A stretch of 64,000 bases of DNA from Candidatus Latescibacterota bacterium (GCA_965206595.1 OZ242214.1:6976001-7040000), one strand, 5' to 3'. Numbered from the stretch's first letter, positions 1 to 49,933 are shown. Made by a program: numbers and translations. The notes: generated by a model not told the origin, from the letters alone.

Positions 1-526
1 TTCGCTACCCCGGTCACCCAAATACCATGCAATGGGCGTGCCTGTACCTGGCCGGCAGAGCTCATGAATGGCGTATGTAGTTGCGTAACCTGTTGTTTTA
101 CTGTGTCTTACTAATATCACTTTTTCTTTTTTCGTCGCCATCAGCTCGTCCTTGTCGCTACCGGCTTCTCGGTCCCGCCGTATTATATACGGTTTTCACC
201 GACGGGCCGCCGCCCGCCCCTCCTCCTTCAAGCTCGGTTCTACTCGAAAGAAGCCGCGCCGTCTCAGGCGCTGGATCGCTGGTTTTTTTCCGAAAATGGA
301 AATTCTGCGAGGGAGTTCAGGTTTGACCCCCTTGCCGCGGGCAGGTGCCGAGCAGGCCCTGGCCGAACAGGCGGGTGATCTCGTCGACTTCGTAGCGCGG
401 AAGCGGCACCAGGCGGCCTCGCCTCCGCAGTGGCAGGCCGGCGGACCGGCCGACCGCACGGGCGAGGACCTCGGCACCGATCCGGAAGCCCGCCGGGAAA
501 TCGTGCAAATGCGAGAAAGATCGGGC
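1..526. repeat. Copy 1 of a near-identical ~0.53-kb direct repeat (region upstream of a peptide gene); copy 2 at 2131..2674
   Basis: Position 1 'ttcgctaccccggtcacccaaataccatgc...' recurs at 2131. Similarity continues into the 3' parts of the flanking paralogues (527.. vs 2675..). Confidence 0.95.
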
Positions 527-1504
527 TTACTCCATCTCCAACGAGGCTTTGATCCGCCCCCAGGAAACCGACTCGACCGCGCTGTCCCCTGGGTCGGTCG
601 AGCCCGCGGGCAGCAGCAGCCCGTCGAGAAAGGTATCCGCCCGATTAAAAGAAATGTTGTTAAAGAACGTGGTGGATGTCTCGTCTGGTTGCTGGACTTC
701 GACCGACCATCTTTGGGCATCAAATGCAGGCGGGTCATGGTCAAGCACTACCATCGCGAAACCGATCACCTGTCCCGCAGCAAAATCGCTGACCACGCTC
801 CCCTCGGGGCTTTGCCACGTTTCCCCCCAGCGGTCGAACGGGGTCACGTACAGCTCGATCACCCAGATGACCGGAGCTTCTCCGGCCGCGCCGCCGCCGC
901 TATCCCCATAGGGTGGCAAGGTCGTCCATGAAGCCTGTCCAATCTGGAATCTATACCTAAAATCATTCAGGGTCGGACCCCTGACAGTACGGGAAATAGC
1001 CTGGTAAAACGGAGCTTGCCCATGAATCTCGATAGCTTTTTCCAGTGGAGTTTCGGAATTACTCCCCTTTCCGCCGCTATGGTCTCCGTCGATCGCCAGC
1101 ATGATGCTGTCATACTGGGACATTCCATCACCAGAAGAACCGTAGTCGTGGGTGTTCTTGTACACGTCGTCGCTGGCCACGAAGCCGACATAGAGACGGG
1201 CCGGCTCGTCGTGCCAGGCCAGCCAGATGCGGAAGTCCAAGTCGGAAGGATCAGGTAGCAAAGGAGGCGAATGCGGCTCTTCTCCCGTGAAATCCAGTAG
1301 CGTCATAGTCGGCTCCCCGACCAGCTCGTACCACTCGTCTACCAACCCGTCGTCGAGTTGGATCTGTTCCAGCATTTCGTCACTGAGATAGGGAATCGGG
1401 AACACGCGGTCTCCGAGGTGGGCCTCTGCCCGGGCAGACAGCCCCAATCCGAGAAACAGAAAAAGGGCGGCGTGCCATTGCTTCCTGATACGAACACGGG
1501 TCAC
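527..1504 (-). CDS. Secreted CBM9/DOMON-like paralogue, type A (copy A3)
   Basis: Signal peptide ending ARAEA; motifs IQLDDG.VDEWY, DLDFRIWLAW, LY..FVASDD, DSIMLAIDGD, VIELYVTPFD, GQVIGFA.V.DHD; C-terminal SAVESVSWGRIKASLEME. Confidence 0.8.
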   Translation of the reverse strand: MTRVRIRKQWHAALFLFLGLGLSARAEAHLGDRVFPIPYLSDEMLEQIQLDDGLVDEWYELVGEPTMTLLDFTGEEPHSPPLLPDPSDLDFRIWLAWHDEPARLYVGFVASDDVYKNTHDYGSSGDGMSQYDSIMLAIDGDHSGGKGSNSETPLEKAIEIHGQAPFYQAISRTVRGPTLNDFRYRFQIGQASWTTLPPYGDSGGGAAGEAPVIWVIELYVTPFDRWGETWQSPEGSVVSDFAAGQVIGFAMVVLDHDPPAFDAQRWSVEVQQPDETSTTFFNNISFNRADTFLDGLLLPAGSTDPGDSAVESVSWGRIKASLEME

Positions 1505-1823
1505 GAGTTTTTCTCCTGTGTGAAGTTTGAACTGGCTTGCCTGCTTCGGGCAGGCATGGTGTGGTTAATGCAGGGCAGGCAGGCGCGGTGTCAATTCCTT
1601 CGTTCAGGTCTGGCTGCAACCCTTTGCTCACTTGCTCACCTATTGAGCGCTTGCGCGCGGGGCACCGCATCCGCCTGTCTGCCGGCACAGGCAGGCGGGC
1701 TGAACACCCTCCGTCGACGAGATCCCCGGATTCAAGCAGCCACTATCCCAGCATGGTCTATTTCCTGGACCGCTCCCTGCGCAGTGCGGCCAGGGCAGAA
1801 AGCCCGGCAGGAAAGGCGGAACA

Positions 1824-1897
1824 GCGCCCACACCCCTTAAAGAAACAGGGCATGGGCGCCTGAGCGACTGGAGCCTCCCCGCAGGAGGGGAGAGCTC
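1824..1897 (-). terminator. Two tandem stem-loops directly after the peptide stop codon (terminator, attenuator or mRNA stabiliser)
   Basis: Arms 1871-1880/1887-1897 and 1824-1835/1848-1859; both hairpins are conserved at 8101-8178. Confidence 0.6.
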
Positions 1898-2096
1898 AGT
1901 CGCAGTTGCAGCAGCCGTTGTAGGAGTACCCGTGCCCCAGTACGGAGCACAGGTAGGCGCACTCGCCGGCGGAGTTAACATTGGTGAAATGGTGCTGTCC
2001 GGTATGTGCGCTCAAGAAGACTGCACCGGCCGCGAGCATGACTCCCGCCGCAACGGCGAGGAAAGCCTTCCTGCTCCGATTCAATTGACGTTTCAT
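1896..2096 (-). CDS. 66-aa secreted Cys/His-rich peptide (P2)
   Basis: ATG at 2096 with GGAGG RBS; MKRQLNRSRKAFLAVAAGVMLAAGAVFLSA signal, then HTGQHHFTNVNSAGECAYLCSVLGHGYSYNGCCNCD; paralogue at 8177..8383. Confidence 0.85.
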   Translation of the reverse strand: MKRQLNRSRKAFLAVAAGVMLAAGAVFLSAHTGQHHFTNVNSAGECAYLCSVLGHGYSYNGCCNCD

Positions 2097-2130
2097 TTCT
2101 GCCTCCCTTTGGATTTTGGGGTCGCGCCTG

Positions 2131-2674
2131 TTCGCTACCCCGGTCACCCAAATACCATGCAATGGGCGTGCCTGTACCTGGCCGGCAGAGCTCATGAATG
2201 GCGTATGTAGTTACGTAACCTATTGTTTTACTGTGTCTTACTAATATCACTTTTTCTTTTTTCGTCGCCATCAGCTCGTCCTTGTCGCTACCGGCTTCTC
2301 GGTCTCGCCGTATTATATACGGTCTCGCCGTATTATATACGGTTTCGCCGACGGGCCGCCGCCCGCCCCTCCTCCTTCAAGCTCGGTTCTACTCGAAAGA
2401 AGCCGCGCCCGTCTCAGGCGCTGGATCGCTGGTTTTTTTCCGAAAATGGAAATTCTGCGAGGGAGTTCAGGTTTGACCCCCTTGCCGCGGACAGGTGCCG
2501 AGCAGGCCCTGGCCGAACAGGCGGGTGATCTCGTCGACTTCGTAGCGCGGAAGCGGCACCAGGCGGCCTCGCCTCCGCAGTTGCAGGCCGGCGGACCGGC
2601 CGACCGCACGGGCGACGACCTCGGCGCCGATCCGGAAGCCCGCCGGGAAATCGTGCAATGCGAGAAAGATCGGG
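2131..2674. repeat. Copy 2 of the direct repeat at 1..526, with an extra 20-bp tandem duplication at 2301-2340
   Basis: Direct comparison with 1..526; GGTCTCGCCGTATTATATAC occurs twice in tandem. Confidence 0.95.
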
Positions 2675-3661
2675 CTACTCCATCTCCAACGAGGCTTTGA
2701 TCCGCCCCCAGGAAACCGACTCGACCGCGCTGTCCCCTGGGCCGGCCGGATCGGCAGGCAGCAGCAGCCCGTCGAGAAAGGTATCCGCCCGATTAAAAGA
2801 AATGTTAAAGAACGTGGTGAACCAGGTGTATGTGTCGTCTGGTTGCTGGACTTCGGCCGACCATTCCTGGGGATCAAATGCAGGGGGGTCATGGTCGAGC
2901 ACTGCAATCGCGAAACCGATCACCTGGTCCGCGGCAAAACGGCTGACCACGCTCCCCTCCGGGCTTTGCCACGTTTCCCCCCAGCGGTCGAACGGGGTCA
3001 CGTACAGCTCGATCACCCAGATGACCGGAGCTTCTCCGGCCGCGCCGCCGCCGCTATCCCCATAGGGTGGCAAGGTCGCCCATGAAGCCTTTCCAATCTG
3101 GAATCTATACGAAGAATCATTCAGAGTCGGACCGCTGACAGTACGGGAAATAGCCTCGTAATCCGGAGCTTGCCCATAAAATTCGATAGCTTCTTCCCAT
3201 GGAGTGTTCTGGTCTCTCCCCCTTCCTCCGCTGTGGTCTCCGTCGATCGCCAACACGATGCTGTCATGCTCATTTCCGAAGGAAGGTGAACTACTGTAGT
3301 CGTGGGTGTTCTTGTACACGTCGTCGCTGGCCACGAAAGCGACGTAGAGACGGGCCGGCTCGTCGTGCCAGGCCAGCCAGATACGGAAGTCCAGGTCGGA
3401 AGGATCAGGCAGCAAAGGAGGCGAGTGCGGCATATGTCCCGTGAAATCCAGCAGGGTCATGGCCGGTTCGCCGATCAACTCGTACCACTCGTCTATGCGG
3501 CCGTCGTCGAGCCGGATCTGTTCCAGCATCTCGTCGGTAAGCTCGGCAATCGGGTACAGGCGATCGCCGAGGTGGGCCTCTGCTGGGACGGCGGATATTG
3601 CCAACCATAAAAGCAGGACCAAACTGCATTCAACTGCTTTTCGGATACGAACACGAGGCAT
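2675..3661 (-). CDS. Secreted CBM9/DOMON-like paralogue (A2: type A body with a B-type N-terminus)
   Basis: Same motif framework and C-terminal SAVESVSWGRIKASLEME. Confidence 0.8.
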   Translation of the reverse strand: MPRVRIRKAVECSLVLLLWLAISAVPAEAHLGDRLYPIAELTDEMLEQIRLDDGRIDEWYELIGEPAMTLLDFTGHMPHSPPLLPDPSDLDFRIWLAWHDEPARLYVAFVASDDVYKNTHDYSSSPSFGNEHDSIVLAIDGDHSGGRGRDQNTPWEEAIEFYGQAPDYEAISRTVSGPTLNDSSYRFQIGKASWATLPPYGDSGGGAAGEAPVIWVIELYVTPFDRWGETWQSPEGSVVSRFAADQVIGFAIAVLDHDPPAFDPQEWSAEVQQPDDTYTWFTTFFNISFNRADTFLDGLLLPADPAGPGDSAVESVSWGRIKASLEME

Positions 3662-3727
3662 GAGTCTTTCTCCATTCTGAGCGCTGTGAAAGCCCGAGGG
3701 CGATCACCGGAGAGGACGATACGCCGG
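3662..3727. repeat. 66-bp intergenic spacer repeated at 4703..4768 and 5753..5818
   Basis: gagtctttctccattctga(g/a)cgctgtgaaagcccgagggcgatcaccggagaggacgatacgccgg lies between consecutive paralogues. Confidence 0.95.
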
Positions 3728-4702
3728 TTACTCCATCTCCAGGGCGGCCTTGATTCGCCCCCAGGAAACCGACTCGACCGCGCTGTCTCCAGGCTGGGGC
3801 GAGCCCGCGGGCAGCAGGATGCCATCGACAAAGGTATCTCCTCTTACATCCCACAATTCTCCGAACACACTTCCATCAGACCGATGCATGGCTTCAGGTA
3901 CCCAACCCCTCCATCTCCCAGGTGGATCGCGGTCATGTACAATAATCGCAAAACCAATTACCTTCCCTGCGGCCAGGTCGCTGACCAGGTGATCCCCGGC
4001 GCTACTCCACCCTCCCCCCCAATGGTCGAAAGGGGTCACGTACAGTTCGATCACGCTGATGACGGGAGCTTCTCCGGCCACGCCTCCGCCCCCATCCCCA
4101 TAGGGAGGAAAAACCGTCCAAGGAAACTCCCCCGTCTGGTGTCTGACGCCCGGGTCATCCAGGGTCGGGCCGCCGACGGTGCGGGCAATTGCCTCGTACC
4201 ACTGAGTTTGCCCATGAGCTTCCGGCCAATCCGCTTCCAGTGAGCAACTCGAGGTACAACCCGCCCCCCCGCTGTGGTCTCCGTCGAATCCCATCATGAT
4301 ACTGTCATGATCCATCATATCATCTCTAGTAGATGATTCAAACCAATCCCCACTGTAGTCGTGGGTGTTTTTGTACAGGTCGTCGCCAGCCACGAAGGCC
4401 ACATAGATGCGAGCCGGGTCGTCGTGCCAGGCCAGCCAGATGCGGAAGTCCAGGTCGGACGGATCCGGTTCCAGGTTCTCCCACTCCTCTTTGAAATCCA
4501 GCAGGGTCATGGACGGCTCGCCGACCAACTCGTACCACTCGTCTATGCGCCCGTCGTCGAGCTGGATCTGTTCCAGCATCTCGTCTGTGAGCTCGGCAAT
4601 CGGGAACACGCGGTCGCCGACGTGGGCTTCGGCAGATATTGCCAACCATAAAAGCAGGACCAAACTGCATTCAACTGCTTTTCGGATACGAACACGAGGC
4701 AT
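3728..4702 (-). CDS. Secreted CBM9/DOMON-like paralogue, type B (B1)
   Basis: Framework motifs; GAGCTSSCS loop; C-terminal SAVESVSWGRIKAALEME. Confidence 0.8.
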   Translation of the reverse strand: MPRVRIRKAVECSLVLLLWLAISAEAHVGDRVFPIAELTDEMLEQIQLDDGRIDEWYELVGEPSMTLLDFKEEWENLEPDPSDLDFRIWLAWHDDPARIYVAFVAGDDLYKNTHDYSGDWFESSTRDDMMDHDSIMMGFDGDHSGGAGCTSSCSLEADWPEAHGQTQWYEAIARTVGGPTLDDPGVRHQTGEFPWTVFPPYGDGGGGVAGEAPVISVIELYVTPFDHWGGGWSSAGDHLVSDLAAGKVIGFAIIVHDRDPPGRWRGWVPEAMHRSDGSVFGELWDVRGDTFVDGILLPAGSPQPGDSAVESVSWGRIKAALEME

Positions 4703-4768
4703 GAGTCTTTCTCCATTCTGAGCGCTGTGAAAGCCCGAGGGCGATCACCGGAGAGGACGATACGCCGG

Positions 4769-5752
4769 TTACTCCATCTCCAGGGCGGCCTTGATTCGCC
4801 CCCAGGAAACCGACTCTACGGCGCTGTCTCCCGGCTCGGGGGGCAGCAGGAGGCCGTCGAGAAATGAATCTCCTCTTCTGTCCCACAATTCTCCAATCGC
4901 AATTCCATCAAGCCGCTGCATGGCTTCGGGTGCCCAACCCCTCCATCTCCCAGGTTGATCGCGGTCATGTACAATGATCGCAAAACCGATTACCTTCCAT
5001 GCGGCCAGGTCGCTGACCAGGTGATCCCCGGCGCTGTCCCATCCTCCCCCCCAATGGTCGAACGGGGTCACGTACAGCTCGATGACGCTGATGGTCGGGT
5101 TTTCTCCGGCCACGCCTCCGCCCCCATCCCCATAAGGAGGAAAAACCGTCCAAGGGAACTCCTCCGTCCGGTGTCTGACGCCCGGGTCATCCAGGGTCGG
5201 GCCGCCGACGGTACGCGCAATTGCCTCGTACCACTGAGTTTGCCCATGAGCTTCCGGCCAATCCTCCTGTGAGCAACTCGAGGTACAACCCGCCCCCCCG
5301 CTGTGGTCTCCGTCGAATCCCAGCATGATACTGTCATTATCCATCATATTATCTCTAGATGATCCGAACCAATCCCCCCCACTGTAGTCGTGGGTGTTCT
5401 TGTACACGTCGTCGCCGGCCACGAAGGCCACATAGATGCGAGCCGGCTCGTCGTGCCAGGCCAGCCAGACGCGGAAGTCCAGGTCGGACGGATCCGGTTC
5501 CAGGTCCTCCTCCCACTCCTCTTTGAAATCCAGCAGGGTCATGGACGGCTCGCCGACCAACTCGTACCACTCGTCTATGCGCCCGTCGTCGAGCCGGATC
5601 TGTTCCAGCATCTCGTCGCTGAGATAGGCAATCGGGAACACGCGGTCGCCGACGTGGGCCTCTGCCCGGGCAGACAGGCCGGCAGATATTGCCAACCATA
5701 GAAGCAGGACCAAACTGGCATTCAACTGCTTTCGGGTACGAGTACGGGTCAT
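4769..5752 (-). CDS. Secreted CBM9/DOMON-like paralogue, type B (B2)
   Basis: Close paralogue of 3728..4702 with the same tail. Confidence 0.8.
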   Translation of the reverse strand: MTRTRTRKQLNASLVLLLWLAISAGLSARAEAHVGDRVFPIAYLSDEMLEQIRLDDGRIDEWYELVGEPSMTLLDFKEEWEEDLEPDPSDLDFRVWLAWHDEPARIYVAFVAGDDVYKNTHDYSGGDWFGSSRDNMMDNDSIMLGFDGDHSGGAGCTSSCSQEDWPEAHGQTQWYEAIARTVGGPTLDDPGVRHRTEEFPWTVFPPYGDGGGGVAGENPTISVIELYVTPFDHWGGGWDSAGDHLVSDLAAWKVIGFAIIVHDRDQPGRWRGWAPEAMQRLDGIAIGELWDRRGDSFLDGLLLPPEPGDSAVESVSWGRIKAALEME

Positions 5753-5818
5753 GAGTCTTTCTCCATTCTGAACGCTGTGAAAGCCCGAGGGCGATCACCG
5801 GAGAGGACGATACGCCGG

Positions 5819-6778
5819 CTACTCCATCTCCAGGGAGGCCTTGATACGGCCCCAGGAAACCGACTCGACCGCGCTGTCTCCCGGGCCGGCCAAGTCGGCG
5901 GGCAGCAGCAGCCCATCGAGAAAGCCGTCTGCCCGGTGGTGAAAGAAAATTCGAAAAAGGTCCGTGGGGGTGTATTCTCCAGACTGCAGGGCTTCGGGTA
6001 CCCAATCCACCCAGTCGGAATCCGGCGACTCCCTATCCCGTACCGAAATCGCGAAGCCGATTACCTGTCCCGCTGTCAGATCGCTGACCGTGATCTCCCC
6101 GGGGCTGTGCCATCCCGCCCAGCGGTCGAACGGGGTGACGTACAGCTCGATGACGCTGATGGTCGGGTTTTCTCCGAACACCCCGCCACCGCCCTCCCCG
6201 TAGGGTGGAAAGACCGTCCAGGCGTACTCCCCCGTCTGGACTCTGGTGCCCCCGTCATCAAGGGTCGGGCCGATGGGAGTTCGGGCAATCGCCTCGTACA
6301 TCTGAGTCCGCCCGGCGATCTCCTCCCACTCTTCCAGCTGCGTACTGTTGCCAGCGCCGGCACCGCCGCTGTGATCTCCATCGATTACCAGCACAATACT
6401 GTCATTGTTGATGAAAAGTTCATCCGAGGCCCAACTGTGGGTGTTCTCGTACACGTCGTCGCTCGCGATGAAGGCGAGGTAGAATCGAGCCGGGTCGTCG
6501 TGCCAGGCCAGCCAGATGCGGAAGTCCAGATCGGACGGATCAGGTGTCACCTCTCCCCTCCGGTCGGCAAAATCCAGCACCGTCATGGTCGGTTCCCCGA
6601 CCAGCTCGGACCACTCGTCCACCAAGCCGTCCTTGAGATCGATCCTTTCCAGCATCTCGTCACTGAGATAGGGAATCGGGTACACGCGGTCTCCGAGGTG
6701 GGCCCCGGAGGACATCGCCAGTCCCAGGAGCAGAACGAGGGGGGCGTGCCATTGCTTCCTGATGGGAAAACCGATCAC
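5819..6778 (-). CDS. Secreted CBM9/DOMON-like paralogue, type C
   Basis: GTG at 6778 after a GGAG RBS gives a signal peptide that aligns with the paralogues; same tail. Confidence 0.8.
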   Translation of the reverse strand: MIGFPIRKQWHAPLVLLLGLAMSSGAHLGDRVYPIPYLSDEMLERIDLKDGLVDEWSELVGEPTMTVLDFADRRGEVTPDPSDLDFRIWLAWHDDPARFYLAFIASDDVYENTHSWASDELFINNDSIVLVIDGDHSGGAGAGNSTQLEEWEEIAGRTQMYEAIARTPIGPTLDDGGTRVQTGEYAWTVFPPYGEGGGGVFGENPTISVIELYVTPFDRWAGWHSPGEITVSDLTAGQVIGFAISVRDRESPDSDWVDWVPEALQSGEYTPTDLFRIFFHHRADGFLDGLLLPADLAGPGDSAVESVSWGRIKASLEME

Positions 6779-6851
6779 AAGTTTTCTCCCTTGTCTGACG
6801 CCCGGCGCGGTCGAGGCTCGAGAACCGCGCAAAGGATGGTCCGCATGCCGG

Positions 6852-7808
6852 CTACTCCATCTCCAGGGAAGCCTTGATCCGCCCCCAGGAAACCGACTCC
6901 ACCGCGCTGACACCCGGTCCGGCCGGATCGGCGGGCAGCAGCAGCCCGTCGAGAAAGGAATCCGCCCGATTGCGAATTATGTTCCAGAAGGTGGTGTCGG
7001 TCTCGTCTGACTGCTGGACTTCGACCGACCATCTTTTGACATCAATTGCAGGCGGGTCATGGTCAAGCACTACCATCGCGAAACCGATCACCTGTCCTGC
7101 GGCAAAATGGCTGACCACGCTCCCCTCGGGGCTTTCCCACGGTTCCCCCCAGCGGTCGAACGGCGTCACGTACAGCTCGATCACCCAGATGACCGGGGCT
7201 TCTCCGGCCACGCCGCCGCCGCCTTCCGCATAGGGTGGCAAGGTCGTCCATGAAGCCTGTCCAATCTGGACCCTATAGGGCACATCATTCAAGGTCGGAC
7301 CGCTGGCTGTGCGGGAAATAGCCTGGTAAGACGGAGCTTGCCCATGAATCTCGATAGCTTCTTCCAGTGGAGTGTTGGAGTCACCCCCCCTTCCTCCGCT
7401 ATGGTCTCCGTCGATTGCCAGCATGATGCTGTCATTTTCATGTAGGTATGGAGAACTACTGTAATCGTGGTTGTTCTTGTACACGTCGTCGCTGGCCACG
7501 AAGGCGACATAGAGGCGGGCCGGCTCGTCGTGCCAAGCCAGCCAGATGCGGAAGTCCAGATCCGCAGGATCGAGCGGCGATTGGTGGATTTCTTCGGTGA
7601 AGTCCAGCAGCGACAGGGTGGGCTCTCCGACCAACTCGTACCACTCGTCCACCAACCCGTCGTCGAGCTGGATTCCGGCCAGCATTTCGTCGCTGAGATA
7701 GGGAATCGGGTACACGCGGTCTCCGAGGTGGGCCCCGGAGGACATCGCCAGTCCCAGGAGCAGAACGAGAGCGGCGCGCCATGGCTTTTTGGTACAAACT
7801 CGGGTCAT
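6852..7808 (-). CDS. Secreted CBM9/DOMON-like paralogue, type A (A1)
   Basis: ATG at 7808 (MTRVCTKKPW...) after AGGAG; same framework and tail. Confidence 0.8.
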   Translation of the reverse strand: MTRVCTKKPWRAALVLLLGLAMSSGAHLGDRVYPIPYLSDEMLAGIQLDDGLVDEWYELVGEPTLSLLDFTEEIHQSPLDPADLDFRIWLAWHDEPARLYVAFVASDDVYKNNHDYSSSPYLHENDSIMLAIDGDHSGGRGGDSNTPLEEAIEIHGQAPSYQAISRTASGPTLNDVPYRVQIGQASWTTLPPYAEGGGGVAGEAPVIWVIELYVTPFDRWGEPWESPEGSVVSHFAAGQVIGFAMVVLDHDPPAIDVKRWSVEVQQSDETDTTFWNIIRNRADSFLDGLLLPADPAGPGVSAVESVSWGRIKASLEME

Positions 7809-8100
7809 GGGTCTTCTCCTGCGCGAAGTTTGGACCGGCTGCCTGCTTCGGGCAGGCATTGTGTGGATAAAGCCCGGATCAATGGAGCGCTTGCGGACGG
7901 CCGGGCCCGCAATCCGCCTTTCTGCCTCCTGCCTGTCTCCTCTCTGCCTCGGCACAGGCAGGCGGGGCTGAAGACTTCCATCGACGAGACTATCCTGATT
8001 CATGCGCCGTCGAAATGCCTAATGCCGTCTTTGGTTATTTCTTGGAGCGCTCCCTGCGAGTCGCAGGGGGACCCCAAGAACCCAGCAGGAAATGCGGAAA

Positions 8101-8178
8101 GGCGCCCACACCCTATAGAAACAGGGCGCGGGCGCCTGAGCGGACTCGAGCCTCCCCCTTGGCAGGAGGGGAGAGCTC
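8101..8178 (-). terminator. Two tandem stem-loops after the P1 stop codon
   Basis: Arms 8101-8114/8123-8136 and a second hairpin at 8148-8178; homologous to 1824-1897. Confidence 0.6.
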
Positions 8179-8383
8179 AGTTGCATTCGCAGCAGTTCCA
8201 AGAATCGTAGTAGGTGTACCCGTGCCCCAATTGAGAGCACATGTAGGCGCAATCATCTTCGGAGTCAACTCCGCTGAAATGGTGCGAACTGCCTGCGCTC
8301 AAGAAGGCCGCACCGGCCGCGAGCATGACCCCCGCCGCGATGGCGAGAAGGGCCTTTCTGCTCCGATTCAAATGACGTTTCAT
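8177..8383 (-). CDS. 68-aa secreted Cys/His-rich peptide (P1)
   Basis: GGAGG RBS; 30-aa signal, then GSSHHFSGVDSEDDCAYMCSQLGHGYTYYDSWNCCECN. Confidence 0.85.
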   Translation of the reverse strand: MKRHLNRSRKALLAIAAGVMLAAGAAFLSAGSSHHFSGVDSEDDCAYMCSQLGHGYTYYDSWNCCECN

Positions 8384-8624
8384 GGCTTCCTCCTGTGGTT
8401 TCGGGGCCGCGCCTTTCGCTAACCCCGTTCACCCAGAAGAGATGCAAACGGCGTGCCTGTACCTGGCCTGCGCCTCCACGAATGGGAACTGTAGTTCCGT
8501 AAGTCATTATTTTTCAGGTCTTTTACAAAATGTTTTTTATTTTTCGGGGGGCCGTCAGCTCGTTTTTGCCACGAACCGGCTTCCCGTGTCCGCCGTATTA
8601 AATACAAATTTTTGTATTTAATAC

Positions 8625-9952
8625 CACTACTGTCCGGTTGAGCGTTTTGAAGAATTGTGTAAATAACTAATCTACAATGAGTTGGGCGAATAAATGACCG
8701 TTTTCGATTTGAAATCGATCGTAGATTTGGGCCATTCAGCACTGCATTTAACCAGTGAGGGAATGGCCGATGCATACGGGACGAATGGTATTCTCACAGC
8801 TCATGGATTTCCTACCCAGGCACGAGTTCAACCGATGCGTGCGTCGGTATCATGGCAATTACAGGACACGGCACTTCAAGTGTCGCGATCAGTTTCTGTG
8901 CATGGCCTTTGCGCAACTGACCGGTCGGGAAAGCCTACGGGACATCGAGACCTGTTTACGCGCGATGCAGTCCAAGCTGTATCATGCCGGCATTCGATAC
9001 CCGGTTTCCCGGAGCACCCTGGCCGATGCCAACGAGCACCGGGACTGGCGCATCTATGCCGACTTCGCTCAGGTGCTCATTGGCCACGCCCGCAAGCTAT
9101 ACAGCCAAGACGACTTCGGAGTCCAACTCGAAGAGACCGCCTATGTCTTCGATTCCAGCACCATTGACTTGTGTCTTTCGCTGTTTCCGTGGGCCCGATT
9201 CCGTCAGCGCAAAGCCGCCATCAAGCTGCACACGTTGATGGATCTACGCGGCAATATCCCCTGTTTTATTCGCATTACAGAGGGGAAGACGCACGATGTC
9301 GGCCTGCTCGACGAATTGATTCTGGAACCGGGCGCCTTCTACATCATGGATCGCGGGTACATCGACTTTGCGCGGCTGTATACCTTCACTGAGCAGGCCG
9401 CTTTCTTTGTTATTCGAGCCAAACGCAATCTGGCCTATCGCCGGCGTGCCTCGCGTGGCGTCGACAAAACAACCGGCGTGCGTAGCGACCAGCGCATTGT
9501 CCTGTGCGGCCCCCAGACCAAAAAAGAATACCCGGATGCGCTTCGCCGCATAAGTTTTTTCGACGTCGAGTCGAAGAAGCGATTGGTCTTGCTGAGCAAC
9601 CAATTCCTGCTCCCTTCTTTTACCATCGCCCAATTGTATCGATGTCGCTGGCAGGTGGAGTTGTTCTTCAAGTGGATCAAGCAGCACCTGCGCATCAAGT
9701 CATTTTTCGGTACCTCCGAGAACGCGGTAAAGACTCAAATCTGGATCGCCATCAGCATGTACGTGATGGTGGCCATCATGAAGAAGCAGCTGCGGGTCGA
9801 GCGCAGTCTCTCCGAAATTCTGCAAATTCTCACCGTGTCACTTTTCGAGAAAGTTGATATTTTACAGGTACTTACAGAAATCCACCTCCAAAACCAATCG
9901 GCATACTCTTGTAACCAGTTGAATTTATTTGACTTATAACCGGACACTACTG
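8625..9952 (+). mobile_element. IS4-family insertion sequence
   Basis: Terminal IRs CACTACTGTCCGGTT / AACCGGACACTACTG (13/15 match); 9-bp target duplication ATTTAATAC at 8616-8624 and 9953-9961. Confidence 0.92.
8770..9939 (+). CDS. IS4-family transposase (DUF4372 + DDE)
   Basis: FDSSTIDL, MDRGYID and YRCRWQVELFFKWIKQ (YREK-type) motifs. Confidence 0.92.
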   Translation: MHTGRMVFSQLMDFLPRHEFNRCVRRYHGNYRTRHFKCRDQFLCMAFAQLTGRESLRDIETCLRAMQSKLYHAGIRYPVSRSTLADANEHRDWRIYADFAQVLIGHARKLYSQDDFGVQLEETAYVFDSSTIDLCLSLFPWARFRQRKAAIKLHTLMDLRGNIPCFIRITEGKTHDVGLLDELILEPGAFYIMDRGYIDFARLYTFTEQAAFFVIRAKRNLAYRRRASRGVDKTTGVRSDQRIVLCGPQTKKEYPDALRRISFFDVESKKRLVLLSNQFLLPSFTIAQLYRCRWQVELFFKWIKQHLRIKSFFGTSENAVKTQIWIAISMYVMVAIMKKQLRVERSLSEILQILTVSLFEKVDILQVLTEIHLQNQSAYSCNQLNLFDL

Positions 9953-9954
9953 AT

Positions 9955-11361
9955 TTAATACGAATCCTCCATGCGCAGCCGATGGGCCGCGGTCCCGCCC
10001 GGCTCCGCCTCTTCCCGCCTCAGCCGCCGGGAGATCCAGATCACCGACAGCAGCGACGAGGCGACCGCGGAAGCGACGAACGTCCACCAGACCGCGGTCA
10101 GTCCGAAGTCCCAGTAGCGGGTCAGGGCGTACGAGACCGGCACCGCGATCAGCACCACGCGAAGGGCGGTGATGACCATCGCCGGGACGCCGCTGCCGAG
10201 GCCCTGGAAGACCCTGCTGCTGATCAGCCCGGCCGCTATGAACGGGAAGGCGAGCACGAACACCCGCAGGTAGGAGGTCGCCACCCCGGCGATGCGCTCG
10301 TCGTCGGTGAAGGCTCCGGCCAGCTGCGGCGCGAACAGGTAGAAGCCGAGGCCGAAAACGACGGCGAGCACCTCCGCCCTGAGGATGGTGTAAACCAGGG
10401 TCTTCCTGACGAGGTCGATGCGCCCGGCCCCGGAGAACATCCCCGCCAGGGTCACCTGGCTGGTGGCGAGGGCGAACACCGGCATGAAGAAGATCGAGTC
10501 CATGCGCCCGGCGACGCCGAGGCCGGCCACCGCCTCGGAGCCGAACACCGACACAATGCGGTTGTAGAAGATGCCGCCGCCCGAGATCAGCAGCATCGAC
10601 GCCGAGGAGGGGAGCCCCACCTTGAGGATGAGGCCCGCGGTTGTCCGCGTCAGCCCCCATGGTCCGGAGCCCAGATTCAGGAAGGTGCCCCGGCGCACGA
10701 AGATGTAGAAAAGGAACACGAGCATCACCGCGAACTGACTGATGATCGTCGCCCAGGCGGCCCCGGCGATTCCCAGGCCGGCCGTGAAAATCAGCAGCGG
10801 ATCGAGGGCGACGTTGAGGAGGGTGCCCCCGGCCTGGAAGAGGACGGGGGTTCTGGTGTTGCCTTCCCCGGTCATGATCGAGCGGAAGCAGGTGTTGACC
10901 ACGACGAAGGCGAACCCCGGGGCGGCGACCTCGAAGTAGCGGACGGCGAGGGCGGCGACCTCGCCGGTGGCCCCCAGGGCCGTCATGATTCCCCCCTTGA
11001 AGAGGACGGCGACGGCGATGACGGCGGCGGCGAACAGGAGCCCCATTACGATGGTCTGGCGGGCGGCGTCCTCGGCCGCCTTCCTGTCGCCGGCCCCCAG
11101 CGAGCGCGCGATGGCGCTCGTCGCCCCGGCGCCGAGCCCGAAGACCATGCCGATGGCGAGAAAGACCACCGGCATGTTGAAGGTCAGGGCGGCCAGGGCG
11201 TCCCCCCCGAGCATGCCGACGAAGAACATGTCGGTCAGGTTGTAGAAGGTGTAGACCGCCATGCCCATCATCACCGGCAGCGACAGGGTCCAGACGGCGC
11301 GGCGCGGATTGGCGATGAACTCCCCTACCCGGCCGTGGCTCTTTTGCGGCGCTTCACTCAT
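9955..11361 (-). CDS. MATE family efflux transporter
   Basis: About 12 TM segments; TDMFFVGMLG, GEGNTRTP and LNVALDPLLIF motifs. Confidence 0.92.
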   Translation of the reverse strand: MSEAPQKSHGRVGEFIANPRRAVWTLSLPVMMGMAVYTFYNLTDMFFVGMLGGDALAALTFNMPVVFLAIGMVFGLGAGATSAIARSLGAGDRKAAEDAARQTIVMGLLFAAAVIAVAVLFKGGIMTALGATGEVAALAVRYFEVAAPGFAFVVVNTCFRSIMTGEGNTRTPVLFQAGGTLLNVALDPLLIFTAGLGIAGAAWATIISQFAVMLVFLFYIFVRRGTFLNLGSGPWGLTRTTAGLILKVGLPSSASMLLISGGGIFYNRIVSVFGSEAVAGLGVAGRMDSIFFMPVFALATSQVTLAGMFSGAGRIDLVRKTLVYTILRAEVLAVVFGLGFYLFAPQLAGAFTDDERIAGVATSYLRVFVLAFPFIAAGLISSRVFQGLGSGVPAMVITALRVVLIAVPVSYALTRYWDFGLTAVWWTFVASAVASSLLSVIWISRRLRREEAEPGGTAAHRLRMEDSY

Positions 11362-12419
11362 CGATTCGAAGTTACGCTATTGCCCCGAAGGGGGATCAAA
11401 TCGGGATTCCGGCCATGTGCGGCGATCGGTCGGCGGCTGCCGAGTTATTGGCTTCCTGGCCCTGTGCAGGATCTGCCGCCCAACCGGGGTGCGGTGAATC
11501 ACCGCATGGTCGCCCCCGAGAGCCTCGACGAAAACCGCCGGCGCGGCCTCCGTCGGGAGCCTGGAGGCCAAAACCATCCCAGGGGCGGGGCTACGTGACA
11601 TCCGCGATCAGCCTGGGTTAGTTTCCCGGCGTCCCGCGGACCAAACCGCCGCGGACATTCCGTGCTCCATCCGGGAAGCCGCCGCGGGCCCGCGAAAACA
11701 GGTAAACCGAGGCCGGCGCTCGCGGTCTCGCCCGCACTACTGTGGCCGCCGCCGTAGAAAGAACCGGCCGGAAGGAGAAGCAAGTGAACTACGACGCGAC
11801 GACGCGAACCTTCGATTGCGAACCGACTCTCACCGACTTCGAGGTGCTCGACTTCTGCATCAACGGGTACCTCATGCTGGAGGGAGTGGTGCCCGACGAC
11901 GTCAACCGGCGCGCCTGCAACTACCTCGACGGCAGGATCCCGGCGAACCCTTCCTGGATCCCCGACGGCCTCGACGAGGAGCAGCTCGAGCGTATCCGCA
12001 ACTCGCACGAGCCGAGCTCGATCTTTCTCGAGGACTGGTACCTCGAGCACGTGCTCCTCAACCCGGTGCTCTGCGGGGCCATGCGCTCCCTCCTGGGAAG
12101 GAACGTCGGCCTTCCGGTGCTGGCCAGCCTGCACAAGACCGAGGGGCCGAGGGAAGCCCAGGGATGGCACCAGGACGCCGACCGCATCTTCGGCCCGGAG
12201 CTCGAGTTCGTCGAGGTCTTCTACTTTCCGCAGGACACCCCGGCCGAGCTGGGGCCGACCGAGTTCGTCCCCGGCACCCACTTCAGGATGCAGGACCACC
12301 AGGGGGACCACGAGGGGGTGCTCGCCTCCGGGCCGGCCGGCACCATCGGCATCCACCACCAGAGCATCCTGCACCGCCGCGGCGAGTCGACGCCCGGGGT
12401 CCGGCGCATGCTCAAGTAC

Positions 12420-38867: not shown

Positions 38868-39714
38868 TTACCGCAGCGATGCCTTGATACGTCCCCAGGT
38901 GACGGACTCGACGGCTGTATCCTGAGCGCGAAGCAGCACCCCGTCCAGGAAGCCATTAGCCTTGCCATTAAGAAGATCAAGATCATCTATGCGTTCAGCG
39001 TATATATCTACCGGAAGCCAGAATGGACCCATTCCGCGCTCTCTTCCGTCAGTATCGTTAACTATAATGGAAAAACCTATTACCTGGTGTGCAGACAGTT
39101 CGCTGAATTCGGTTTGGTCTACCTCATCCCACGCCCCCCACCAGTTATATGGTGTGACATACATCTCGATCACGCTGACGGTAGGATTTTCTCCGGCTGC
39201 TGTTCCCCCCGCATCCCCATAGGGAGGATAAACCTTCCACGAGTTAGGTAGCCCGCGGTCATACCAAATTGGGGAATGGCCCACTCTGATTTGGTTGTCC
39301 AACGTAGGGCCGCTTACTGTTTGAGCTATGACTGTGATCTGCATCAATATTGAAAAGTACACTGTCAAACAGAAGCACAGACGCGTTATTGTCCTCAGTA
39401 TAGTTATGTGTGTTGTTGTATTCGTCGTCTATAATGATGAAGGCCGCATAAATGCGATTCGACTCGTCATGCCAAGCCAGCCAAATGCGAAAATCCAGGT
39501 TGGATGGTTCGGGCGGGATCAGATTGCCCAAAGTCTGGAAATCCAGGAGGGTCATACTGGGCTCGCCGATCTCGTACCATTCGTCAATCAGCCCGTCATG
39601 CAAGTCGATCGTTCCCAGCATCTCATCCGTAAGCTCGTAGATGGGATACAGGCGATCCCCGCTGTGAGCTGAGGCCACGGCGGTCCATATGAGCAGTGCG
39701 ATCAGTTGTTTCAT
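38868..39714 (-). pseudogene. Divergent CBM9/DOMON-like family member with an internal deletion and frameshift near 39325
   Basis: MKQLIALL..AHSGDRLYPIYELTDEM..LDFRIWLAWHD..DADHS, then in another frame IAQTVSGPTLD..DTAVESVTWGRIKASLR. Confidence 0.8.
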
Positions 39715-40018
39715 TTTTGGTTTCCTTTCAAAAAACAAGTGGATGGCGTTCTCAAAGAGCTTCATCCACTTGTTGATAACCGCCACGAGAACCTGACCTC
39801 CATTTCCGTGAAACCATGGGGCCTTTCGTTCGTCCTGGATTGAAAGATCGCAACAGACAGGCGGCTCCGGTATCACCCGATCGGGTGAATCTGCGGAAAA
39901 ATGGCCGGTTTTTTTCCGAAACCGGCGCCGCCGGCGCAGGACTGTTTGCGGAATGGGTGCTGAAACCGGGGGGGGGGGGGGGGGGGATATAAGGGAGTGA
40001 CTGCCGCGACGAGGGCAG

Positions 40019-40237
40019 CTACAGCGAAGTGAGCCCTGTGCTGACCGCGTACTTGGTCAAGGCCGCTATGCCGTGCCGGTCGAGCTTCTTCACGATGTGC
40101 TTCCGGTGCGTGTGGACGGTGTGCTCGCTCAGGTTCAGTTGCCTGGCAATTTGCGGCGTCGTCAGGTCCTCGCTGATGAGCCGAACCACCTCGCGCTCGC
40201 GCGGGCTCAGCTCCGGATGGGCGACAAGGGCCTGCAC
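40019..40237 (-). CDS. Stand-alone or fragmentary LuxR/NarL C-terminal HTH
   Basis: LSPREREVVRLI...IARQLNLSEHTVHTHRKHIVKKL. Confidence 0.75.
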   Translation of the reverse strand: MQALVAHPELSPREREVVRLISEDLTTPQIARQLNLSEHTVHTHRKHIVKKLDRHGIAALTKYAVSTGLTSL

Positions 40238-40270
40238 CTGGTCCAGGGCCGCCCAGCCCGTCGCATCCTT

Positions 40271-40695
40271 TTAATCCAACAAACCCATCAGCCAATGGAA
40301 GAAAGGTTCCGGCCGGCTGGAGACAAAACAGAGGCTTCTACCATCGGGCGACCAGGACAGCTGCCAGTCACCTTCCCGGACCTGGGGAAGGCGCCTTATA
40401 CCGGTTCCATCAGCCGCCATGCCGTAAATCCCGCTGATTCCTTCCCGATCGGACACGAAGGCGATTTCTCTCGTGGAGGACCAGGCCGGGTTCCAGTCCT
40501 TTCTTCCGGGGTTGTGTGCTGGGCCCACAGGATGCGCCGGCCATCCGGCGACCACCGCGGCGAGGCCGCCCCGTATTCAGACAACCGCCGGACTTGGGTA
40601 CCGTCCAGAGAGGCGAGGTATACGCTGCCGCTAAGATCGTGCGCAGGGACACCGCCCGACCACAGAGGCAGCAGAACGAGCAAGCATCTTTTCAT
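40271..40695 (-). pseudogene. TolB-like/PD40-repeat secreted protein, frameshifted
   Basis: SPRWSPDGRRI, PAWS...IAFVSDR and LSWSPDG in two frames. Confidence 0.7.
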
Positions 40696-40901
40696 TTCGA
40701 CAACGATGCCTTTATGCGGCCCCAGGTATCGGATTCAACCGTGGCTTCCGACGAGTCAGCAGGTAAAAGCAGACCGTCCAGGAAAAAATCTGCCCGCCTA
40801 TGATTCAAGTCTATTATGGGATCTTCGGTTTGAATTGCTTCCGGGGTCAGGTATCTGACCTGGAAATCGTCAATGTCATACACCGCAATCCCGAACCCGA
40901 T
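40692..40901 (-). pseudogene. 3' remnant of another CBM9/DOMON-like family gene, cut by IS256
   Basis: IGFGIAVYDID...RADFFLDGLLLP...TVESDTWGRIKASLSK. Confidence 0.75.
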
Positions 40902-42213
40902 GGGAGCTACCTTCAAAAGGTGTGGAAAAAGAGAAAAGGCGACCCTAACCTTCCATTTTACAGTTCCAACCAAAACCGCCCGGTAGCCTCCGGGCACGGA
41001 AGGAGAGAGTCGCCATGAGAGAATCTACGCTGGAATCTGTAGCCCCGGCCATGCCCACGTTCGCCACGTTGGAGACCTGGGCCCGATCCTCGATCCAGGA
41101 TCTGTTGCAACGGGTTCCGGAGGAGGAGGTGACGGAGTTTCTGGGACGGACGCGCTACCGGCGACGGTCCGCCGTAGACGGCACTCCCGGCTCCCGCAAC
41201 GGGCACGGCAAACCGCGACAGGTGTCGTTGATGTCGGGCACCATCGAGGTGAGACGGCCGCGCGTTCGGGGATTGGAAGAGCGCTTCGAGAGTCGTATTC
41301 TGCCGCTGTTCATGCGCCGTACCCACGAGGTGACCCGGATGCTGCCCGAGCTCTACCTGCACGGGCTGTCTCAGGGTGACTTCGAACGGGCTTTGCGGGG
41401 GCTTTTGGGCAACGGCGCTCCCCTGTCGGCTTCGTCCATTGGCCGGCTGCGGGCGCAGTGGGAGGAGGAGCTGGAGACTTGGCGAGAGCGACGTCTCGAC
41501 GACCGCGAACTGGTGTATGCGTGGGCGGATGGCATCTACGTCAAGGCCGGGTTGGAGAAGGACAAGGCGGCCCTGCTGGTCGTCATCGGCGCCCTGAGTG
41601 ATGGCCGGAAAGAGGTACTGGCCGTGTGGCCCGGCCACCGCGAGTCGACGGAGTCCTGGCTGAAGGTCCTGCGCGACCTGCGCGATCGGGGTCTGCGGGC
41701 CCCGCTGCTGTTGATGGCCGACGGGGGCCTCCCAATTTGGAGCGCCACCGAACAGGTGTGGCCGCAGGCATCGCACCAGCGCTGCTGGAATCACAAGATC
41801 CTCAACGTGCTCGATGACCTGCCGAAGCGGGTTCAGGGAAAAGCGCGGGCGTTGTTGACGCAGATCCCTTCGGCGGAGACGCGCCAGGAGGCCGAGAACC
41901 GACGTAGCACGTTTGCCCGCCGCTACCGCGACCGGTATCCGCAGGCGGTAGCCACCCTCGAACGCGACTGGAAGCGCATGGTCACCTTCTACGACTTTCC
42001 CAGGGAGCACTGGAAACACCTGCGCACAACCAATCCGGTCGAGAGCCCCTTTGCGTCGCTACGCTTGAGGACCAATGCCGGAAAACGTTACAAACGCGTC
42101 CAGGGAGCAACCGCTCTGATTTGGCGCGTGTTGATGGTGGCAGAAAAACGCTTTCGAAAACTCAATGCGCCCGAATTACTGCCCCTCGTCTACGCCGGAC
42201 AACAATACCAGGT
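40902..42213 (+). mobile_element. IS256-family element (transposase from 41015), right end lost at the ISKra4 junction
   Basis: RNGHGKPR, LYLHGLS, WADGIY, QRCWNHK and RTTNPVES motifs; left-end position approximate. Confidence 0.85.
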
Positions 42214-49043: not shown

Positions 49044-49685
49044 TCACTGACGCCAATTCGCTTTCAGACCCCCCCAGGTCGTCCCGGCCACGGCAGTGTC
49101 GGCGTCGACGCGCTGGAATTGCATGGTCTCTTCTCCCCCGTCCTCCGTGGGAGAGGTGATGGACAGGGTGTCACCCTCGATGGCGTAGGTCACGTCCTGC
49201 TCGGAAAATCCGGCGAGGAACTGGTCCTCGTCCATCCCGGCGAGGAACTCGTCGACAAAGTTCTGCTCGAAGGCCGGGTAGTCCTCCTCGGAGACTCCGG
49301 CAAAGTCCGCTGCAAAACGGGCCAGGGCGCGGGCGACCTCGGCGAGGACCTCGAAGAAGTCCCGGTCGCCGACGCGTATTTCCACCTCGGTGATGTCGAC
49401 CGAGAGCTTGTCGCCGTCGACCTCGTAGGTGCCGATGCCCTGGATGGTGACCTCCTCCACGGGTATTTCCGTGTTTTCGACAACGGACTGGAAGTCTTCT
49501 CCCAGCTCGACGACCTGGTTGAGCTCGAAGGCGCCATCCTCCTCAAAGGACAGGCGCATGGTGATCGCGTTGCCTTCCTCGTCCACGAAGCTCCCCTCCC
49601 AGGTGCCCTGGAGGGCCTCTTCCTGGGCGGAGAGGGGTAGGACGAGAAGGCCGAGGAAAACGAGTGATGACAGGATCCGGCGCAT
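49044..49685 (-). CDS. Acidic secreted hypothetical protein with a C-terminal TAVAGTTWGGLK tail
   Basis: AGGAGG RBS; signal peptide MRRILSSLVFLGLLVLPLSA; LQGTW start of a beta-rich domain. Confidence 0.75.
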   Translation of the reverse strand: MRRILSSLVFLGLLVLPLSAQEEALQGTWEGSFVDEEGNAITMRLSFEEDGAFELNQVVELGEDFQSVVENTEIPVEEVTIQGIGTYEVDGDKLSVDITEVEIRVGDRDFFEVLAEVARALARFAADFAGVSEEDYPAFEQNFVDEFLAGMDEDQFLAGFSEQDVTYAIEGDTLSITSPTEDGGEETMQFQRVDADTAVAGTTWGGLKANWRQ

Positions 49686-49933
49686 GAGGCACCTCCTGGT
49701 TTGTTGGTGAATGAAAAGGGCAATGTCGGCGAACTGCATTTCACTTCCGCGATTTTCAACCGTCGGACCTTATAAATCTACGACGTATCCATCGGTTATG
49801 GGTTCCTCGGTCATTCGCCGAACGCGGTTGAGCCCTTGGGCGGCGGCAACCACGGATTCATGCGGCTTTGTCTCAGTCGTGAGCTTCCTTGTCGCGTCCG
49901 ATACATGGCGGACATGATTCTGCGCGCCGGCTC

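Follow-up and report, generated by a model that had tools for sequence, protein, structure and literature searches.

Does a small exported Cys-rich protein that heads an array of exported, diversified paralogues act as their cognate partner, or is it one product among several of a larger regulated system? The question is raised by positions 1–8383 of a 64,000-nt stretch of DNA (hereafter, the window) from a Candidatus Latescibacterota bacterium (GCA_965206595.1 OZ242214.1:6976001-7040000), in which two mini-protein genes, P1 and P2, are each followed by genes for proteins resembling carbohydrate-binding modules of family 9 (CBM9). A preliminary description of the window had compared the locus with polymorphic toxin/immunity and ligand/receptor loci. 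Our analysis suggests instead that the locus is made of enhancer-dependent sigma-54 units, each encoding an exported mini-protein and CBM9-like proteins, the former an accessory factor and the latter a repertoire of binding modules. We consider this account probable, if not strongly so. Its parts differ in weight: the architecture and the type of regulation are very probable, a glycan-binding role of the repertoire is proposed tentatively, and direct contact between mini-protein and paralogue seems doubtful.

Organization of the Locus

All genes in this region lie on the minus strand. In the direction of transcription, they are arranged as P1, two hairpins, A1, C, B2, B1, A2, a spacer, P2, two hairpins, A3, and the spacer again at the window edge. 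This order, the strand, and the coordinates agree with the preliminary description. P1 (8177–8383) encodes a 68-amino-acid pre-peptide, composed of a signal peptide and a 38-amino-acid acidic core with CxxxC, His, and CCxC motifs, and a hairpin pair (8100–8178) lies directly past its stop codon. The first gene past P1 is A1 (6852–7808; 318 amino acids), followed by C (5819–6778; 319 amino acids, GTG start), B2 (4769–5752; 327 amino acids), B1 (3728–4702; 324 amino acids), and A2 (2675–3661; 328 amino acids), the last gene of the P1 unit. The 578-nt spacer (2097–2674) separates this unit from P2 (1896–2096), which encodes a 66-amino-acid pre-peptide whose mature 36 amino acids start with His. 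Directly past the P2 stop codon is the second hairpin pair (1823–1900), followed by A3 (527–1504; 325 amino acids), the protein used for modelling, and by the edge copy of the spacer (1–526), which would drive a unit outside the window. All six paralogues are predicted to be exported proteins with a CBM9-type fold. The order within a unit is one or two palindromes, an AT-rich stretch, a -24/-12 element, the mini-protein gene, two hairpins, and one to five genes for proteins of about 320 amino acids.

A3 shares 79% identity with each of A1 and A2 and 61–62% with B1, B2, and C, and P1 and P2 share 65% identity. Comparison of the regions between peptide and paralogue (367 and 391 nt) showed that they are homologous (mean identity per column of 81% in an alignment of 410 columns), and spacer positions 1–508 repeat 2131–2658 at 98–99% identity, both as described previously. 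Export of all members, also proposed earlier, was borne out by a crude charge and hydropathy check made without a dedicated predictor: all eight proteins carry 2–5 Lys/Arg residues followed by an 11-residue hydrophobic core with a hydropathy of 2.4–2.75.

The hairpin regions past P1 and P2 are strongly folded (-63.3 and -56.5 kcal/mol; z-scores of -5.3 and -4.2), more stably than any of 200 shuffled sequences, and the two copies are conserved with each other. A search of positions 1–9000 against Rfam gave only a chance microRNA match (E-value of 0.52). From their position and stability, the hairpins may represent an attenuator, a processing site, or a 3′-end stabilizer. As a separate observation, contigs of two sequencing runs from two studies (X3 and X4) join position 1600 to 1837 and skip 236 nt of the P2–A3 intergenic region (1601–1836), including part of the second hairpin; therefore, a strain variant with a shorter P2–A3 spacer exists. 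No RNA run was among the listed matches of sequencing runs containing the locus. In four sets of DNA contigs compared with it, the contigs were too short to span the repeats.

Predicted Sigma-54 Cassettes and the Neighboring Activator

The preliminary description had treated the repeated segment as a spacer, and had missed that it is a predicted sigma-54 enhancer/promoter cassette, in which palindromes and an AT-rich stretch precede an exact -24/-12 element. The sequence GGCACG-N4-TTGCA has exactly three perfect matches in the window, all on the minus strand: at 8443–8457 before P1, at 2158–2172 before P2, and at 28–42. The first two lie 60–75 nt before the start codons of P1 and P2, and the third occupies the homologous place in the edge spacer. 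Genome-wide, 17 strict matches were found, five of them in the 6.97–6.98 Mb region. Five GTAT-N3-ATAC palindromes occur in the 64 kb, compared with 0.06 expected, and all of them are located upstream of the three -24/-12 elements: two before P1 (8595–8605 and 8614–8624), two before P2 (2310–2320 and 2330–2340, inside a 20-bp tandem duplication), and one in the edge copy (180–190). These putative sites for an activator, a bacterial enhancer-binding protein (bEBP), are approximately 125–170 nt upstream of the promoter, from which a stretch of 65–75% A+T separates them; for P1, the distance is approximately 140–170 nt. Each of the seven promoter copies inspected across the genome had the palindrome on its upstream side.

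The genome holds one rpoN gene and 25 matches to the sigma-54 activator domain. An activator gene with Y_Y_Y and Sigma54_activat domains lies 2.2–3.7 kb to the left of the window (10272–11774 on the plus strand of the fetched segment L052) and is preceded by an open reading frame (ORF) of Reg_prop repeats (L052 8566–10146, plus strand), both within 2.2–5.4 kb of the window. The two ORFs may derive from one sensor-activator gene that was split or frameshifted, or they may encode a system of two proteins. Sensors of the Reg_prop/Y_Y_Y type occur in hybrid two-component systems that sense glycans. Activator genes also occur near clusters in which this type of promoter precedes the peptide genes (0.52, 5.79, and 6.47 Mb). 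The locus combines what characterizes an enhancer-dependent sigma-54 promoter, namely -24 GG and -12 GC with the correct spacing, upstream sites, rpoN, and an activator. A scan for sigma-70 promoters and terminators gave counts no different from those in shuffled sequences.

Two further observations concern the cassettes. An IS4-family element (8625–9952, plus strand; transposase at 8755–9939) abuts the distal palindrome of the P1 cassette, having inserted one base upstream of it, and read depth suggests that the element is multi-copy. To the left of the window, the promoter of a neighboring peptide gene (6969868–6970119) is tandemly duplicated (L052 8150–8260; approximately 6970150–6970260 of the genome), giving two exact -24/-12 copies 32 nt apart. 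The TTGCA of its -12 region runs into a short ATTGC repeat, and it could be a length-variable promoter.

Predicted Fold of the Paralogues

The paralogues had been labeled CBM9/DOMON-like. None of the six matched PF06452 or PF16011 above the gathering score, and a profile of 50 homologues found no relative among PDB sequences, the only match being a chance one (E-value of 0.27). A word-based search returned 730 homologues, and none of the 120 matches listed was named or carried a domain. An AlphaFold2 model of A3, built with 50 homologues, was of medium confidence, with a predicted local distance difference test (pLDDT) of 64.7 and a predicted TM-score (pTM) of 0.72. When this model was compared with the PDB by Foldseek, the best matches were the CBM9 entries 7nwn, 7nwo, and 1i82 (E-values of 5e-7 to 1e-6, probability of 1.00), with TM-scores of 0.71–0.76 normalized by target length. 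Weaker matches formed a DOMON-like set, composed of NxrC, the ethylbenzene dehydrogenase gamma subunit (EbdC), dopamine beta-hydroxylase, and the cytochrome domain of cellobiose dehydrogenase. Neighbors in the ESM Atlas, in clusters from Latescibacterota, Gemmatimonadota, and Poribacteria, carry PF06452 in 13–97% of their members. These results supported a predicted CBM9/DOMON-type beta-sandwich fold for the paralogues, so that the earlier label is upheld by fold and not by sequence models.

Family Size, Range, and C-Terminal Tail

A profile of the six window genes matched 104 ORF pieces in the 7.05-Mb genome, which merged into 93 loci (52 intact) in 64 arrays or single genes. The array in the window, with seven loci, is the largest of the 64. 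The preliminary description did not include this point: with 93 family loci in the genome, the array is one instance of a genome-wide expansion. The family was present in all 24 other genomes searched from the same taxonomic family, with 1 to at least 58 matches per genome (the best 54 candidates per genome were scored), and no match was obtained in 16 genomes that represent other families of the class. Judged by these searches, the protein family is confined to one Latescibacterota family. Our literature search, which did not cover supplements, found no paper describing such a family.

All paralogues end in ...SWGRIKA(S/A)LEME. Among the ORFs of the genome, 106 occurrences of the motif [ST]WGx[IVL]K were counted: 61 at the C-termini of family members, 35 in other ORFs no more than 12 residues from the end, and 10 elsewhere. 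When 20 of the 35 other carriers were searched against Pfam, 10 gave matches (PD40, BNR, and Kelch propellers, a lamin-tail LTD, an FN3 giant, and a lipocalin-like protein) and 10 gave none. Since the tail is shared by 35 unrelated exported proteins, it behaves like a general address or docking tag, and from its distribution it looks like an undescribed sorting or docking tag.

The tail is usually preceded by PTAV-like residues. One of the 35 carriers lies in the window itself: a lipocalin-like/DUF5640 protein outside the family (49044–49769, minus strand). Genes for PD40 (TolB-like) beta-propellers recur with the system and also adjoin the array of the window (L052 11872–13047), and several PD40 proteins carry the tail as well. 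Further broken copies of the CBM9-like family (38868–41024, minus strand; three ORF pieces with partial profile coverage) are located approximately 30 kb from the array. A 923-amino-acid open frame (L052 5164–7935, minus strand) begins with a match to positions 1–245 of the family profile, followed by approximately 600 residues without a Pfam match; it represents a fusion or, alternatively, read-through of a broken copy.

Evolution of the Array

Identity between the paralogues is mosaic, ranging from 20 to 100% in 60-nt windows. A2 and B1 are 98–100% identical over the upstream spacer and the start of the gene (repeat family D6) and 35–65% identical in later windows, while C and A1 share one 60-nt window at 100%. 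Along a single pair, dS runs from 0 to above 1. Such patchy identity, together with swings of dS within a pair, is a signature of gene conversion. The overall dN/dS between paralogues was 0.34–0.48, suggesting that all six are under purifying selection. Windowed dN/dS values were mostly below 1, and we make no claim of diversifying selection.

That peptide and partner were duplicated as a unit, as stated in the preliminary description, was supported, with the promoter included. In the genome of a sister species (G002), the orthologous locus has the same MatE, PD40, and activator flanks and contains one promoter, one peptide, and four paralogues, compared with two peptides and seven paralogues here; therefore, the second unit was either gained here or lost there. 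The IS4 element is absent from the orthologous locus. In a third unit, beyond the window edge, the peptide gene is reduced to approximately five codons and the paralogue is frameshifted. The sister-species peptide (L096 6435–6686) occupies the position of P1 and has a P1-like leader (dN of 0.055), while its mature part is closer to that of P2 (dN of 0.127 vs. 0.364), so that the peptides are mosaic too. These comparisons indicate that the family evolves by duplication of units, promoter included, and by patchy gene conversion under purifying selection.

The Mini-Proteins

A word search with P1 found 11 homologues, and a profile of 21 peptides matched 34 cluster representatives among 1.84 billion proteins, two of which are long and look like chance matches, one being an Ig-repeat protein. 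A search for related loci with the peptide alignment returned one true relative and one Streptomyces match at 36% identity. With two profiles, matches were obtained in 5 of 61 and in 5 of 76 genomes of the taxonomic family, essentially within the genus of the window. Among weak candidates in genus g14 (L017–L019, L074, and L075), none had a family gene within 1.5 kb; L018 and L019 are likely chance frames, and L074 and L075 belong to another peptide class.

Five residues are invariant in 37 aligned peptides: C46, C50, H55, C63, and C65 (CxxxC, His, and CxC). The mature peptides have a median length of 45 amino acids and a median of four His residues; 25 of the 37 start with His and 29 of the 37 are net negative. 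The AlphaFold2 model has a strand-helix-strand-strand arrangement with a core pLDDT of 75–88, in which helix 43–53 holds C46 and C50 and the last strand (63–65) holds C63 and C65. From these positions, the disulfides would link the helix to the strand, and the topology is predicted to be defensin-like, with the cysteine-stabilized helix motif of cis-defensins. Foldseek of the model, signal peptide included, gave no PDB match at an E-value of 0.001 or below; the best defensin, ZmD32 from a plant, ranked ninth, with an E-value of 5.6 and a TM-score of 0.46 by target. The best ESM Atlas score for P1 was 0.83, below the level that counts. The six-Cys framework C..CxxxC..C..CxC was not found: four Cys residues are invariant, and P1 and P2 have no Cys before CxxxC. 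Among close copies, dN/dS was 0.35–1.4 for the mature part (approximately 36 codons) and 0.18–0.59 for most leaders.

Relationship between Mini-Protein and Paralogue

The preliminary description had implied a cognate pair. In one form of such a pair, the first (A-type) paralogue would be bound by the mini-protein, acting as a ligand, a subunit, or a chaperoned cargo, and the later paralogues would be spare or diversified receptors. Several genomic observations favor it. Each of the 17 peptide-like ORFs in the genome is followed, on the same strand and at a distance of no more than 1.7 kb, by a family gene. Among the 24 loci fetched from this genome (G000) and that of the sister species, 23 have the peptide directly upstream of a family gene, and the 24th has a family gene 1501 nt downstream. 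A search with the motif only found peptide-like ORFs at 10 of 64 array heads, compared with 4 of 2000 random places, and the unit was duplicated together with its promoter. Co-divergence, a further expectation, was also observed, with a Mantel correlation of r = 0.835 between peptide and next-gene identities over 11 pairs, a value reached by one of 5000 permutations. However, joint duplication gives such a correlation with or without contact, so that co-divergence fits linkage as well.

The adjacency, conserved as it is within the genus, did not hold as an obligatory pairing. No peptide was detected in 49 of the 64 arrays or in 71 of 76 genomes, and three genomes with 25–58 family matches (G012, G019, and G001) had zero or one peptide match. 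Detection is incomplete, since divergent Cys-rich small ORFs were seen by eye at 2 of 10 array heads inspected in G012 and G019. The third unit has lost its peptide, and first-position paralogues of different arrays are not specially alike. In three loci (G000 2743243–2753812), a PD40 propeller gene sits between peptide and paralogue. A complex prediction for mature A3 and mature P2, run with their own alignments and no controls, scored 0.28 against a mark of 0.32, which speaks neither for nor against binding. On balance, a cognate pair is rather unlikely.

A second explanation is an extracellular metal system, in which the N-terminal His and His142 of the paralogues would form a copper-type, histidine-brace-like site, with the mini-protein as the factor that takes up or supplies the metal. 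All 50 aligned homologues have His29, which directly follows the conserved Ala of the signal peptide, so that, with cleavage predicted at this site, it would be the first mature residue; His98 and His142 are among the other invariant residues. In 57 copies from the genome itself, His29 and His142 co-vary (both His in 50, both replaced in 6, and mixed in 1; position 29 by itself is His in 50), but the replacements belong to only one or two clades. The mini-proteins add an HxH motif and the invariant His on the disulfide brace to their frequent N-terminal His, high His content, and negative charge, and relatives with redox cofactors are found among the weaker DOMON matches. The predicted N-terminal His is shared with histidine-brace proteins of the lytic polysaccharide monooxygenase (LPMO) type, but neither an LPMO nor a cupredoxin fold was among the 50 best fold matches, and the units contain no metal transporter or chaperone gene. 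We regard a metal system as improbable. A more elaborate form, in which histidine-brace-like metalloproteins on a CBM9/DOMON scaffold, served by a mini metallochaperone and possibly redox-active on polysaccharides, would be multiplied into a repertoire for different substrates and induced by a glycan-sensing sigma-54 activator, is judged slightly more improbable still. In a divergent subfamily (G000 2190167, 2436570, 2439255, 4939155, 5331657, and 5332684), the first mature residue is Gln in place of His, and His142 is mostly replaced by Lys or Arg.

The analogy with polymorphic toxin/immunity loci, drawn in the preliminary description, was not sustained. According to this explanation, or its bacteriocin variant, the peptide would be a secreted toxin, the next gene its immunity gene, and the paralogue tail a set of orphan immunity genes. 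The layout of a pair followed by divergent paralogues, the recombination between copies, the fast-evolving mature peptides, and their defensin-like predicted topology resemble such loci. In contrast, searches of the window and its flanks against Pfam and NCBIfam matched no toxin, immunity, trafficking, or bacteriocin-export family; the supposed immunity proteins are themselves exported beta-sandwich proteins of 320 amino acids from a 93-locus family that mostly occurs without peptides; and the peptides are mostly acidic, unlike cationic defensins, and lack the canonical six-Cys framework. A toxin/immunity function is, therefore, very unlikely. Hardly credible is a bufferin-like ribosomally synthesized and post-translationally modified peptide, that is, a precursor with Cys residues modified by dedicated enzymes: the leader is more conserved than the core among close homologues and the Cys-rich core follows a Sec-type signal peptide, but distant homologues keep the core motif and not the leader, the core is predicted to fold alone, and no modifying-enzyme family was found among the large ORFs (at least 150 amino acids) in approximately 14 kb to the left or in 4 kb to the right, the flanking large ORFs being MatE, PhyH, IS4, PD40, bEBP, short-chain dehydrogenase/reductase, and GH32.

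Proposed Function of the Units

We favor, as stated above, sigma-54 units with an accessory mini-protein and a repertoire of binding modules. The neighboring activator, with its Reg_prop/Y_Y_Y sensor, would switch the units on, and the hairpins might let the peptide message outnumber the message downstream. The CBM9-like proteins may be displayed or docked via the C-terminal tail, and as a set of diversified binding modules they would most likely recognize glycans. Rather than being an obligatory cognate of the whole family, the mini-protein would have an accessory role in one subfamily of units, where it might assist the first paralogue as a partner or by carrying metal, or act independently as a secreted factor.

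Several points weigh against this account. For none of the six paralogues was there a Pfam or NCBIfam match, even at E-values up to 1, so that the CBM9 assignment rests on a medium-confidence model and language-model neighbors. The units contain no carbohydrate-active enzyme, the nearest being a GH32 gene approximately 11 kb away, and the co-varying N-terminal His and His142, together with the His-rich peptides, fit a metal site better than a plain lectin. Strict adjacency and co-divergence fit a physical pair as well as mere linkage. With regard to regulation, sigma-54 dependence and the transcript ends are predictions, as is the role of the hairpins, which fail a simple terminator rule. The activator adjoining the window is divided between two ORFs, and its gene may be disrupted. 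Elsewhere in the genome, several loci headed by a peptide gene have no -24/-12 element within 140 nt; therefore, sigma-54 regulation applies to a subset and is not general to the family.

Comparison with Known Systems

CBM9 modules bind carbohydrates at reducing ends, using an aromatic clamp. The paralogues resemble CBM9 (PF06452 CBM9_1; 1i82, 7nwn, and 7nwo; DOMON-like superfamily) in the predicted beta-sandwich fold, in their CBM9_1-annotated neighbors, and in export. They differ from it in having no Pfam match, in being free-standing and not appended to enzymes, and in their invariant N-terminal His, C-terminal tail, and 93 loci, and sugar binding by them is putative.

Enhancer-dependent sigma-54 promoters with a dedicated activator are known from the NtrC, NifA, and XylR type, and the Reg_prop/Y_Y_Y sensor is otherwise typical of hybrid two-component systems of Bacteroidota. 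The cassettes agree with that promoter type in the -24 GG/-12 GC element, the palindromes at approximately -125 to -170, the AT-rich stretch, rpoN, and a nearby AAA+ activator. In contrast, the activator here has a Reg_prop/Y_Y_Y sensor, the cassette itself is duplicated inside the array, and the targets are uncharacterized.

CBM9/DOMON-like modules also serve as envelope ligand-recognition domains outside glycoside hydrolases, as in the histidine kinase PghK, whose periplasmic part is a CBM9-like sensor (bioRxiv 10.1101/2023.05.05.539549). Compared with the sensor described there, the proteins here are free-standing, tagged, and massively multiplied. For the mini-proteins, the closest comparison is with cis-defensins, or cysteine-stabilized alpha-beta peptides, including the five bacterial classes of PMC11561630, which are alike in having a signal peptide and a small core, a CxxxC helix, a CxC strand, and a fast-evolving mature part. 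In that paper, a six-Cys pattern served as the filter for bacterial defensins, and three phyla were reported. The mini-proteins differ from what is described there in their four invariant Cys residues, mostly acidic and His-rich composition, and lack of a significant fold match; in coming from a phylum outside those three; and in being always encoded upstream of a CBM9-like gene.

Latescibacterota are uncultured, and the present genome devotes 93 loci to a single unannotated family of exported proteins resembling binding modules. The tail common to unrelated exported proteins points to an undescribed sorting or docking route. If the predicted topology is right, the peptide adds a new four-Cys, acidic, His-rich branch to the small set of bacterial defensin-like folds and is the first among them to have a fixed partner in the genome. 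By being copied together with its genes, the compact sigma-54 cassette illustrates a way in which a regulated secreted repertoire can expand. If a metal site is formed by the histidines, these proteins could constitute a new class of polymer-active extracellular metalloproteins. The value of the locus lies in a well-defined, testable system rather than in functional knowledge.

A Second Class of Cys-Rich ORFs

A second class of small Cys-rich ORFs was observed at L045 1479–1784 (G019), L049 1138–1425 (G012), L074 1468–1854 (G077), and upstream of G000 5331804. Its members have a longer N-terminus, with an SE[DS]G motif followed by an LPVAW-type hydrophobic segment, which presumably resembles that of Flp-type pilins. 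In G019 and G077, the gene is preceded by an ORF resembling a prepilin-type peptidase, and three of the four members lie directly before CBM9-like genes.

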